This document shows positions 30,001 through 33,000 of a DNA stretch of 63,271 bases, piece by piece (positions within the stretch are counted from its first letter, which is position 1; each line of letters starts with the position of its first letter). The stretch comes from a virus. Lineage: Duplodnaviria; Heunggongvirae; Uroviricota; Caudoviricetes. The stretch lies in IMG/VR virus record IMGVR_UViG_2939521961_000016; one strand, 5' to 3'. Made by a program: the position numbers.

Positions 30001-33000
30001 CGTTTTTGATTATCCCCGCACACTCACGCAGATAAGGTGGCTGCGGTCTCTGTTAATGCGGGAATACGGCGACGATACGGCGCATGGCTATGTCAGGCTG
30101 AAATGCCTTTATCAAATCCGGGTAACGCAATCTGCCCCTGCTGCTCCAGCCTGTCCAGCCTTGCCAGCAACTGAGGCTTCTTCACCCTGCCCCAGCGATT
30201 GAGCAAACGACCTGACATACTGGCGACATCTTTCTCTTTCATGTACTCCAGCATTACAGCGTTGCGCTCCGCCTCCAGATTCGCCAGACCTTGCTGAATA
30301 AGCTCAGCCATCCAGTTGAAAGCCTGAATGTACGCTTCCTTAAAGGTCATAGCAGCTTTCCCCGTAAAACCAAATACCAACATCGTCCAACCGTCTTTTG
30401 TCATTCGATATATGGGCTGGGGTTTACCGTTCTGTAACTCATTGTTTTCATAGCAAAGCGCAAAATTGCGCTCTGCAAATTCTTTTGAGCATTGTTGAAC
30501 AACGGCTCTTGTTTTCCGCAATACATCTTTGTGTTCTTTGCCAAATGCTACGGCAACCTTTCGGGTATCCGTCACCGGCTCGTTGCCTGTCACAAAAACA
30601 AGATCGCGGAAATCAATACCGTTAACAATCGTCAGATAGTTCATAGCGTCTTACCTTTCAGAAAATTGAGCCTGTCTCACAGAAAAGCCGCCCCGAGATG
30701 GTCGCCACCATATACGGCAGTTCTCAGGCTCAACTTTCTGAAAGGCTCGGGGATGTGATATGCGCGTGAGATGCGCGATGAAATTCAGATATGAAAAAGC
30801 CAGCGATTAAGCTGGCTCTGTTAATTCAGGCACTGAGTGCGGATATATTCCTGTGCCCCTTCCAGCTGCTTCTGCATTGTCATCAACCGTTCTCTGAGGA
30901 TGAAATAATCCCGTTCAGCGGTGTCTGCCAGTCGGGGCCTGGTTGCATTATCCACGCCGGAGGTGCCGGTGGCTTCACGCACGGTACCGGAGCAGGTGGC
31001 GTTGATCCGCAGGCGCTTACGACCAGCGGCAACATCAGCACGCAGAGTTTCATTTTCAGCTCTCGCATCGGCTAACTCCCTCGAGTATTTTGCATCGAGC
31101 GCAGCAACATCACGCTGGCGCACCTGCATGTCAGTAATGGTGGCATTCGCCTGTTCCAGCTCTCTGGCTTTTTTATCGCGCTGCGCTTTGTAGGTGAGCG
31201 CGTTGTCACGGTAATGGTTTGTTGCCAGCCACAGCGCACCATAGCCAACCGCCAGGACAATAATCACCACACACAGAACACGGTTCATCTCTCTTTCACC
31301 CCACCAGTCCCGATAACGTCAGGACTCGCCAGGCGGTGGAAAAGAAAATGGCAACCAGCATGACTAAAAATGAAATGCCGACAAGTACACAGAGGCTCTT
31401 CACCAGCGTTATGAGTTTATCTGATATCATTAGCCACCCCATCAATCCGCCTTTGTTATTTTCCCTTTGCCTGTATCAGCCAGGACAAAATCAATCAGCA
31501 TATTCGCTTCATTTACCAGCGTACGGATTTTTGATACATGCGCGGCTTTAACCTGTTTCCACTCATTCAGCCCGGTAGCAAACACACTGGCAATGTTTTT
31601 ATCCCGTTTCATGTCAGCACAAGCCTGGTTGAGTTCTTCCATCACGCTCATTTTACGGGGATTAACGACAAAACCCTTCGTCCAGTACTCGTAAAGAACA
31701 TCGTCGCACTCTTCCTGATACCGGATGACCTTATCGCGGATTTCGGGTTTTACTTTGTTGGGATTAATGGTTTGTAGCCAGCCGGCAAGTTTTCGAAGTG
31801 GCATGGACACCATATTGCGTTGTTTCCCATCCTCAGCAACCATAACGATTTCCGTTATAGTTGACGCAAAACGCTGTCTTAACTTAGCCAACTGTGATTG
31901 CCAGGCCAGCCCCATCCCCGCAACGACAGGTTTCATGGGAACGTATGGTTCGCCATTATGGTTAACTACATAAAGAGAGTTGCCGTGAAACGGCACGGCC
32001 ATCATATTCATCGGTTATTTCCTTTTAGTGATGAACCTTGTCTCACAGGAATCCAGCCCACAGAAAGGCACCGACAGCCAAACCGGTATCCTCAAGGGTC
32101 ATCCTGAAAGGTTCTGTGTTGTGAGATGCGCGTGAGATGCGCAGAAATGACAAAGGCATCATTACGGTGCCTGAGTGTTAAACAACTGTTTTGACTTTAT
32201 TCACTTACATTTTGCCAATTTGCAGGATTTCGTGTTATCCGTCCATGTAAGCAAACCTCATTTTTCAGCAAAATATTCTTCTTATCTGTCGATTCCCCAG
32301 CACGCCAGCGCGCTCTCCTGGTCACGACGGGATACCTGACCGTAACAGTTGTTTGAACGAATACGGCAGTCTCTGCCACCGTCCTTAATCCACCAGCGAA
32401 TAGCTTCGCAGGCACCTTTTCGATCACCTGCATTAATTCGTCTGTAAAACGTCGACGGGAAACACTTACCGGGACCAATGTTGTACGGACAGAATGACGC
32501 GATCCCCGCTTTCTGGGGTTCGGTCAGCGGCACTTTGATGTTTTTCTCCACCCATGCCAGCGCCTTATCACGCTCAATGGCGTTAACCCGGTCGCATTTT
32601 TCCTTCGACAGCTTCATGCCAGGAATAACAGGCTTACCATCCACCCGGGTGGCTCCACGGCAGATGGTCCAGATACCCGCACCATCACGGTATGCTGTGG
32701 TGTGGTTACCTTCCTTTTCATCCAGAAACTGGTCGAGGATTTCAGGCGCAGAAGCACCTGCGGCAATCAGCGCCAGAACGGCAGCCGATAAACCATAGCG
32801 GAGTTTCCTGCTCATCAGCTTACTCTCCCCGTGCCGCCTTACGCCTGTCCTCTCTGATTTTGAAATACAGGTTCGTCAGGTACGTCAGCAGACCAAACAG
32901 CAGACTCCCCAGCACGCCTATTGCCGCCCACTGAGACGGGGAAACCCTGTCCAGCAACTGCAGGAACCAGTAGCCCGTTCCCACCGCTGACGTGGTGTAT

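Follow-up and report, generated by a model that had tools for sequence, protein, structure and literature searches.

Two structured leaders in a phage late operon

The window analysed here is the whole 63,271-nucleotide (nt) DNA of IMG/VR virus record IMGVR_UViG_2939521961_000016, a Shiga toxin (Stx) 2a-converting lambdoid phage that is 99.7% identical over 2.9 kb to LC645417-LC645419 and is matched at 99% or better by 65 phage records. Two accessory genes of its late region, an antirepressor-like gene (ant) and rha, are each preceded by an intergenic stretch, one lying between R and Rz and the other between Rz and terS (Table 1). Both stretches are leaders of accessory genes inserted in the Q-dependent late operon, and they belong to a large RNA family of about 135 nt that is widespread in prophages of gut bacteria, is absent from Rfam 15 and has strong covariation support.

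Homologous loci were gathered from IMG/VR and GTDB genomes via the Rha and Ant proteins, and the first comparison set comprised 52 distinct versions of the upstream region. R1, a covariance model of the nested fold, was built from homologues elsewhere; the refitted alignment is called A9 and the second model R2. Read 5′→3′ on the gene strand, the element begins with a mini-hairpin (P1) and an A-rich linker of 9-17 nt, followed by segment A (7-8 nt), segment B (about 20 nt, complementary to the Shine-Dalgarno (SD) sequence and hence called the anti-SD arm), B2, C, a variable apical hairpin, A', C', B2', L' (6 nt), B' (which holds the SD), about 10 nt and the AUG. All of these segments are readable in both window leaders, and R1 and R2 match both at full length. 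Sense-strand matches of R1 in the 63-kb window number exactly two, the rha leader and the ant leader; a third listed match (30654-30745, plus strand, 28.5 bits) comes from the two palindromic arms of the rha copy. The two leaders carry one and the same version of the P1 loop and its target (AUCUCAC/GUGAGA), whereas copy pairs in other phages usually differ.

Table 1. Segments of the two leaders and neighbouring features of the late region, in window coordinates.
Feature	Coordinates	Strand	Basis
rha leader, whole structured element through AUG	30642..30783	minus	model R1 144.2 bits, E 1e-38; R2 137 bits
rha leader, P1 mini-hairpin GCGC[AUCUCAC]GCGC (first 11-mer plus GCGC of the second)	30762..30776	minus	covariation
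rha leader, A (CCCCGAG), abuts anti-SD arm, pairs with A'	30746..30752	minus	permutation test
rha leader, B, 5' anti-SD arm of the long helix	30725..30745	minus	covariation, minimum free energy
rha leader, A' (CUCGGGG), apical region, abuts C'	30691..30697	minus	
rha leader, L' (GUGAGA), complementary to P1 loop UCUCAC, forms pseudoknot helix K	30675..30680	minus	covariation
rha leader, B', 3' arm; SD GAAAGG at 30654-30659, AUG at 30642-30644	30654..30674	minus	
ant (P22_AR_N) leader, whole element through AUG	32009..32149	minus	R1 71.2 bits, E 5e-18; R2 109.7 bits
ant leader, P1 hairpin GCGC[AUCUCAC]GCGC	32128..32142	minus	
ant leader, A (CACAGAA), pairs with A' UUCUGUG at 32059-32065	32112..32118	minus	
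ant leader, B, anti-SD arm	32093..32111	minus	
ant leader, L' (GUGAGA)	32041..32046	minus	
ant leader, B'; SD AAAGG at 32021-32025, AUG at 32009-32011	32021..32040	minus	
Holin	33110-32820	minus	
Endolysin	32815-32282	minus	
ant gene, antirepressor-like, P22_AR_N and ORF11CD3 domains	31442..32011	minus	Pfam E 1.4e-45 and 5.5e-06
Rz/Rz1	31288-30821	minus	
Intrinsic-terminator-like hairpin AGCCAGC-TTAATC-GCTGGCT plus T-run, after Rz and ahead of the rha leader	30793..30817	minus	sequence; hairpin-plus-T-run search
rha gene, Phage_pRha and ORF11CD3 domains	30093..30644	minus	Pfam E 4.6e-26 and 6.9e-24
Small terminase	from 29800	minus	

A sequence-only reading of this DNA had drawn attention to a tandem 11-bp repeat and a long inverted repeat ahead of both genes. 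The repeats are indeed there, GCGCATCTCAC standing twice at 32121-32142 and GCGCATCTCAC together with GCGCATATCAC at 30755-30776, all on the minus strand and 110-132 nt upstream of both start codons (30644 and 32011). With at most one mismatch the 11-mer has six matches in the window against 1.44 expected, a number reached by 0 of 100 shuffles. The arms of the inverted repeat (30656-30674 and 30725-30743) are present too, complementary except at one A/G position that becomes a G-U pair in minus-strand RNA, and the true extent of the long helix in the rha leader is 21 bp (30654-30674 with 30725-30745). Aligning the two leaders established that they are homologous, with common blocks GCGCATCTCACGCGCAT, CCTTTCAG and CTGTGAGACA. 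Folding as RNA gave a divided answer: the rha leader has a minimum free energy (MFE) of -61.6 kcal/mol and a z score of -4.15 against shuffles, whereas the ant leader does not stand out by MFE alone (z -0.15).

The second 11-mer is not kept in relatives that share the first unit (e.g. GCGCAATTCAA and GCGCATATTAA). Conserved instead is a hairpin with a GCGC stem, and covariation links its loop to a site about 85 nt downstream. As GCGC is identical to its reverse complement, P1 resembles an 11-bp direct repeat. The "tandem repeat" is thus the P1 mini-hairpin GCGC-N7-GCGC followed by a lineage-specific partial duplication of the loop sequence after the stem. The extra AUCUCAC of the ant leader (32121-32127) could pair with L' without a pseudoknot. 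A third exact copy of GCGCATCTCAC (63050-63060, plus strand) lacks the second GCGC, so that no hairpin is possible; the covariance model finds no match there, and this copy is probably a chance match.

The early ant-type genes of the window are both preceded by isrK and C4 modules (RF01394 and RF01695; 46863-47050 and 58613-58795, plus strand), and the repeat core had been likened to the block CGCACATCT in those leaders. That 9-mer occurs in the window only within the duplicated isrK-C4 module, at 46953 and 58702, and since 13 of 100 shuffles give at least two matches, the resemblance is attributable to chance or to the duplication of the module. Neither sequence nor Rfam models support a link between the early and late leaders, and in 30500-32400 no match to C4 or isrK was obtained with a cutoff as loose as E ≤ 10. 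CAAUCAAGG, a stretch overlapping the downstream SD (about 47087-47096), is complementary to the C4 loop UUCCCUUGAUUG. Other RNAs in the window are sRNA-Xcc1 (48430-48515), STnc100 (35874-36075, minus strand) and three tRNAs (37484-37732, minus strand).

Six pairings covary on the gene strand

Covariation was scored on 86 distinct leaders, drawn from P22, phi80, Stx phages and many prophages of Enterobacterales. Taking all pairs together, 85.8% of cells are paired, compared with 68.8% when partners are shuffled, and 0 of 500 shuffles reach the observed value on any of five measures; sliding the partners by one to three columns lowers pairing to 30-50%. The P1 stem, whose family form is GCGC-N6-7-GCGC, is 99.1% paired, with all four pairs changed on both sides and 23 stem versions that include GCUC/GAGC, UUGCC/GGCAA, GGCACA/UGUGCC and UGUGUC/GACACA. 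B:B' is 90.6% paired and 16 of its 16 pairs have changed on both sides; the pairs of the SD itself are among those that covary (alignment columns 63-80 with 236-248). B2 and C:C' reach 98.3% and 99.7%, respectively. A hairpin inside arm B, using the invariant UGAG in an open state, was also considered and rejected: changes in B are compensated in B' (L047, L013) and not within the arm.

Helix K, formed by the P1 loop and L', is 82.7% paired on an alignment that was not fitted to it and 91.5% on A9, and all six pairs have changed on both sides. In alignment-free tests, which optimise cognate and non-cognate partners alike, the energy of K was -8.24 kcal/mol for cognate against -4.37 kcal/mol for non-cognate partners, and that of the 7-bp helix A:A' was -9.26 kcal/mol against -4.83 kcal/mol for shuffled partners; the cognate value was reached by 0 of 2000 permutations in either case. 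Thus six pairings covary across the 86 homologues: P1, B:B', B2, C:C', K and A:A'.

On the gene strand, G-U pairs number 143 and A-C mismatches 83. This excess, together with the fixed position beside the SD and AUG, indicates that the element is RNA on the coding strand: it is read from the minus strand as RNA and is not a DNA operator. The competing account, in which a phage protein would use the tandem 11-mers as its operator and the inverted repeat would be a protein site or a cruciform, could appeal to the perfect tandem 22-mer at 32121-32142. We regard it as highly improbable, as the second unit is not conserved in relatives, one leader has lost a unit while its gene remains intact (L003, below), and the compensatory changes keep pairing rather than sequence and tolerate G-U on the gene strand. 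There is also no promoter-like site for an operator to regulate, and sigma-70 hexamers were not found beside the conserved repeats; between 29700 and 33200 a scan covering sigma-70-like sites only found 0 promoters where 3.2 were expected. The shared control element that the sequence-only reading had proposed therefore survives as one RNA-level architecture common to both leaders, placed beside the SD and with pairing that covaries in 86 homologues; its version as a protein-bound tandem-repeat operator does not.

For helix K there are 41 loop/target combinations and about 30 distinct loop sequences, and such diversity invites a reading in trans, with the P1 loop serving as address and L' as target between copies or co-resident phages, an antisense-like specificity system comparable to the C4 loops and their targets in P1/P7 immunity. 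The loop-target pair exists in about 30 versions, the two copies of a phage usually differ (UUCACAC versus CGCAC in L001, AUUCACA versus ACGCUC in L036), and the same phage uses C4/isrK for its early ant genes. The likeness to C4/isrK extends to the control of antirepressor-type genes, to a loop that pairs near the ribosome-binding region and to the joint variation of loop and target between phages. C4, however, is an independent, processed RNA (about 87 nt) whose two target-binding loops pair across the ribosome-binding site (RBS), whereas the leader has one 7-nt loop, which pairs in cis with a site about 20 nt upstream of the SD. Loop and target moreover always lie on one leader at fixed spacing, there is no promoter or terminator to release a small RNA (sRNA), and both window copies are of the same version. 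Among close relatives the difference rate of K is 0.033, compared with 0.065 elsewhere, and the column entropies are the same; since K columns do not change faster than those of other helices, they carry no diversifying signal. Action in trans thus appears improbable. Immunity-like diversifying selection on the loop/target pair was considered separately and is ruled out by the K column rates.

In small translational riboswitches a pseudoknot typically takes in the SD or lies beside it, and the elaborate structure of the leader would suit a metabolite or ion riboswitch with a pseudoknotted aptamer gating the SD. However, no conserved unpaired ligand-binding core was found in the leader family: almost no unpaired nucleotides are invariant, and the 16 invariant columns in 24 diverse leaders lie mostly in helices. 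The apical region is variable in both length and sequence, the second copy of phi80 having a greatly reduced one; Rfam gives no riboswitch match even at E ≤ 10, and the SD helix is stable without a ligand. A riboswitch is accordingly a very improbable identity for the element.

Transcription attenuation was examined as well. No terminator follows the element in the sequence, and B' is followed by GGUAAGACGCUAUG or GGAAAUAACCGAUG with no U-run; the terminator-like hairpin lies upstream of the leader and not within it. Such a hairpin with a T-run stands upstream of the leader in 72 of 90 distinct homologous flanks, mostly 19-21 nt before P1. For the hairpin ahead of the rha leader, a general terminator scan listed the palindrome on the plus strand only, at 30798-30817 and without the T-run. 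A 17-codon open reading frame (ORF; AUG GUG GCG ... UGA; 30660-30713, minus strand) begins in the apical loop of the rha leader and reaches its stop codon within arm B'; it is not conserved in the ant leader or in most relatives and was rejected. A 49-codon ORF between ant and Rz (31296-31445, minus strand) overlaps the ends of both genes, and at the equivalent position Sakai Sp5 has a 48-codon ORF annotated as hypothetical protein ECs_5707.

Distribution, downstream genes and natural variants

The leader always terminates at an SD and AUG, and at least six unrelated protein families follow it: Rha, P22_AR_N, KilAC/ANT, KilA-N, HNH_3 (with AP2) and GIY-YIG. Most related loci hold one or two R1 matches. 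The family includes P22, phi80 in E. coli DH10B (two copies) and the Sakai Sp5 Stx2 prophage, where the leader precedes the antirepressor gene ECs_1214; the O104:H4 Stx phage P13374 is a member by sequence similarity. A blastn search found a rha-type copy in 919 of 5426 complete E. coli genomes (about 17%). GTDB species representatives gave 54 matches in 53 of 74 Rha loci, in Escherichia, Klebsiella, Citrobacter, Enterobacter, Trabulsiella, Rosenbergiella, Xenorhabdus, Providencia, Morganella, Pantoea, Erwinia, Mixta, Yersinia, Pectobacterium, Gilliamella and one Halomonas; the GTDB Rha loci searched from Pseudomonas, Aeromonas and Psychrobacter had no leader. Three of these matches lie in records labelled Bacillota, Collinsella and Chryseobacterium, which we suspect to be mis-binned or contaminating sequence.

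Rfam 15 has no family that matches at gathering score or plausibly below it, and at E ≤ 10 returns only chance-level matches to microRNA, small nucleolar RNA and serC models (E of at least 1.3). Our literature searches found no description of the leader. The Stx prophage late region does encode AgvB and AsxR, sRNAs of 51-60 nt with their own promoter and terminator at a moron site just after PR' (PMC4104026), and the CA-rich sequence of the ant leader (CACAACA-like) is reminiscent of them. This identity was rejected, the leader being fused to an SD and AUG between lysis and packaging genes with no promoter-like site and no terminator. The supplementary tables of Tree et al, 2014 (PMC4104026) contain nothing at the leader's Sakai coordinates, and the preprint on Pas sRNAs does not mention Rha, antirepressor or lysis genes.

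Several members depart from the arrangement of the window. The second phi80 copy (L237:4089-4209, NC_010473) is shorter, scores 66 bits, has a reduced apical domain and lies downstream of rha, before the gene for hypothetical protein WP_000509882.1. In the scanned IMG/VR loci, the window-type ant leader has no second (rha) leader within about 1.9 kb downstream, and in Sakai Sp5 a Bor gene follows Rz where the window has the rha leader. In E. coli LR-48 (L235, NZ_AP027543) the leader and a GIY-YIG nuclease gene adjoin an IS5 insertion in a rearranged prophage, flanked by early-region genes (bet, gam, kil, cIII) and the packaging gene nohD; the cassette therefore also occurs away from the lysis-packaging junction.

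Individual sequences show what the structure can lose. One leader (L003:711-841) has lost one 11-nt unit and so has no P1 hairpin, and its rha is intact. A decayed leader (L045:2364-2503), with no P1 and a changed L', is followed by a truncated rha of 27 codons. A single loop change in a third (L182:1355-1503) breaks K (-3.1 kcal/mol), while its sister L162 pairs normally. The architecture can also correct gene starts, P22 rha being an example (L239:2076-2147 = NC_002371 39575-39646): the annotated start, a GTG at 39575 giving a 201-aa product, falls inside the apical region of the leader, and by the conserved architecture the gene would start 69 nt downstream, at an in-frame ATG (L239:2145) with the SD GAAGG, encoding about 178 aa like other Rha proteins.

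A proposed role of folding order in exposure of the Shine-Dalgarno sequence

Two of the six pairings cross the SD helix. K, whose target is the 6 nt just 5′ of B', has the geometry of an H-type pseudoknot (P1 loop A|UCUCAC with GUGAGA, L1 of 1 nt across 6 bp, L2 of 0), and A:A' joins the 7 nt just 5′ of B to the apical loop. The gap between A and B is 0 nt in 48 of 54 parsed leaders; in the window rha leader A lies directly against B, as does A' against C'. In every leader the fold that masks the SD is more stable than the fold with K and A:A' and a free B', on average by 13 kcal/mol (range 2-27; 24.7 for the window rha leader and 4.0 for the window ant leader). Since the masked fold is always the more stable, an SD-open state would be only transient or assisted. 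Pairing, covariation and computed energies show that the thermodynamically dominant fold joins the anti-SD arm B (19-21 nt) to the SD arm B', which would throttle translation strongly. SD sequestration is a known principle; the architecture that serves it here is unusual.

The order in which the segments are transcribed suggests how the crossing helices might act. All helices other than B:B' are mutually compatible and are transcribed ahead of B'. Once formed, they would enclose arm B in a loop closed by A:A', and B:B', which makes two helical turns, would be blocked until A:A' opens; the SD end of B:B' would zip last. Because the enclosed arm B would hinder completion of B:B', we propose that the leader acts as a kinetic latch, in which the nascent RNA would start with its SD exposed, allow a brief burst of translation and relax to the stable, SD-masked OFF fold. 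Such a device could hold DNA-binding and nuclease proteins (Rha, antirepressor-like, KilA-N, HNH, GIY-YIG) at a low dose within a very strongly transcribed operon, and the upstream terminator would confine their expression to Q-antiterminated late transcription. We put about even confidence in the proposal that the leader is a cis-acting, SD-masking element of about 135 nt serving as a kinetic latch or translational throttle on late-operon accessory genes, with a timing that we infer. The bolder proposition is tentative and rather doubtful: that the leader represents a new class of RNA device, in which a pseudoknotted cage (P1-K, A:A', C:C' and B2) would topologically delay the two-turn SD helix and serve as a timer permitting one short burst per late transcript.

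Several observations count against such a latch. Scored by columns, A:A' is only 50% paired, also with the second model; this scoring failed because the register shifts between sequences. When the nascent prefix is folded by nested-only MFE, A:A' appears in 7 of 86 leaders, and its co-transcriptional formation is therefore not predicted from energy alone. B:B' has no nucleotide in common with K or A:A', so that mutual exclusion depends on a steric and topological argument, and a compact fold holding all helices together is sterically conceivable: the strands it would have to span are of similar length (21.7 nt for B and 20.1 nt from A' to L', in a noisy parse). Finally, the energy gap is so wide (2-27 kcal/mol) that no tuned equilibrium is evident.

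These points bear on a static alternative, in which all six helices coexist, B lying beside a coaxial stack of A:A', C:C' and B2 with K bridging the top, and the SD is permanently masked. Expression would then need an outside activator, for example a helicase, an RNA-binding protein or RNase III, which would cleave the 20-30 bp helix. No nucleotide is used by two of the helices, closure would be permitted by the 0-nt junctions A|B and A'|C' together with struts of similar length (~21.7 and ~20.1 nt), B:B' with its extensions is long enough to be an RNase III substrate, and the masked fold is always the most stable. Yet the 21-bp helix (about -35 kcal/mol) would hide the SD unaided, which leaves K and A:A' without an obvious role; the strut lengths are uncorrelated across leaders (r = 0.16), differing by -6 to +6; and if A:A' forms first, as the order of transcription permits, it hinders B:B' topologically. 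We consider a static fold, and with it the need for such an activator, unlikely without being negligible.

The proposed kinetic latch has partial parallels in known systems. Hairpins that sequester the RBS of homing-endonuclease genes are described for T4 I-TevI, I-TevII, I-TevIII and segB and for Aeh1 mobE, and in T4 a late promoter inside the hairpin makes transcripts without the 5′ arm (PMC2988022). As in those cases, an accessory gene that may be harmful lies in a phage operon with its SD buried in a very stable hairpin, and some leaders of the present family likewise precede HNH and GIY-YIG nuclease genes. The present leaders share the SD within a hairpin; they differ in that the sigma-70-like scan revealed no internal promoter, and in having two extra covarying long-range pairings.

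For the hok mRNA family pathway and the leader of the MS2 maturation gene, nascent folding order reportedly governs translation, in work said to go back to Gultyaev and Gerdes in 1997, Nagel in 1999 and the van Duin laboratory. The resemblance lies in metastable, covariation-backed structures that form before a stable fold in which translation is silent. The alternative helices of hok have nucleotides in common (coupled covariations) and activation occurs by 3′ processing, whereas here the competing helices lie on disjoint segments and the proposed barrier is topological; there is no homology. Among lambdoid phages, the lambda N leader is activated by RNase III and the lambda cIII mRNA adopts alternative structures. 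These leaders likewise expose an SD through alternative folding or cleavage of a long helix, but they serve other genes and have other sequences, and to our knowledge no pseudoknot has been described in them.

If confirmed, these results would add a large, well-supported structured-RNA family to phages that are among the most thoroughly studied, P22, phi80 and the Stx phages of O157 and O104:H4, and would provide a natural case of translation control by folding order or topology. They would show how temperate phages hold antirepressor-like regulators and homing-type nucleases at a low dose in a late operon, and would give a concrete, mutable point of access to Rha and Ant, late-region proteins of Shiga-toxin phages that are poorly understood.

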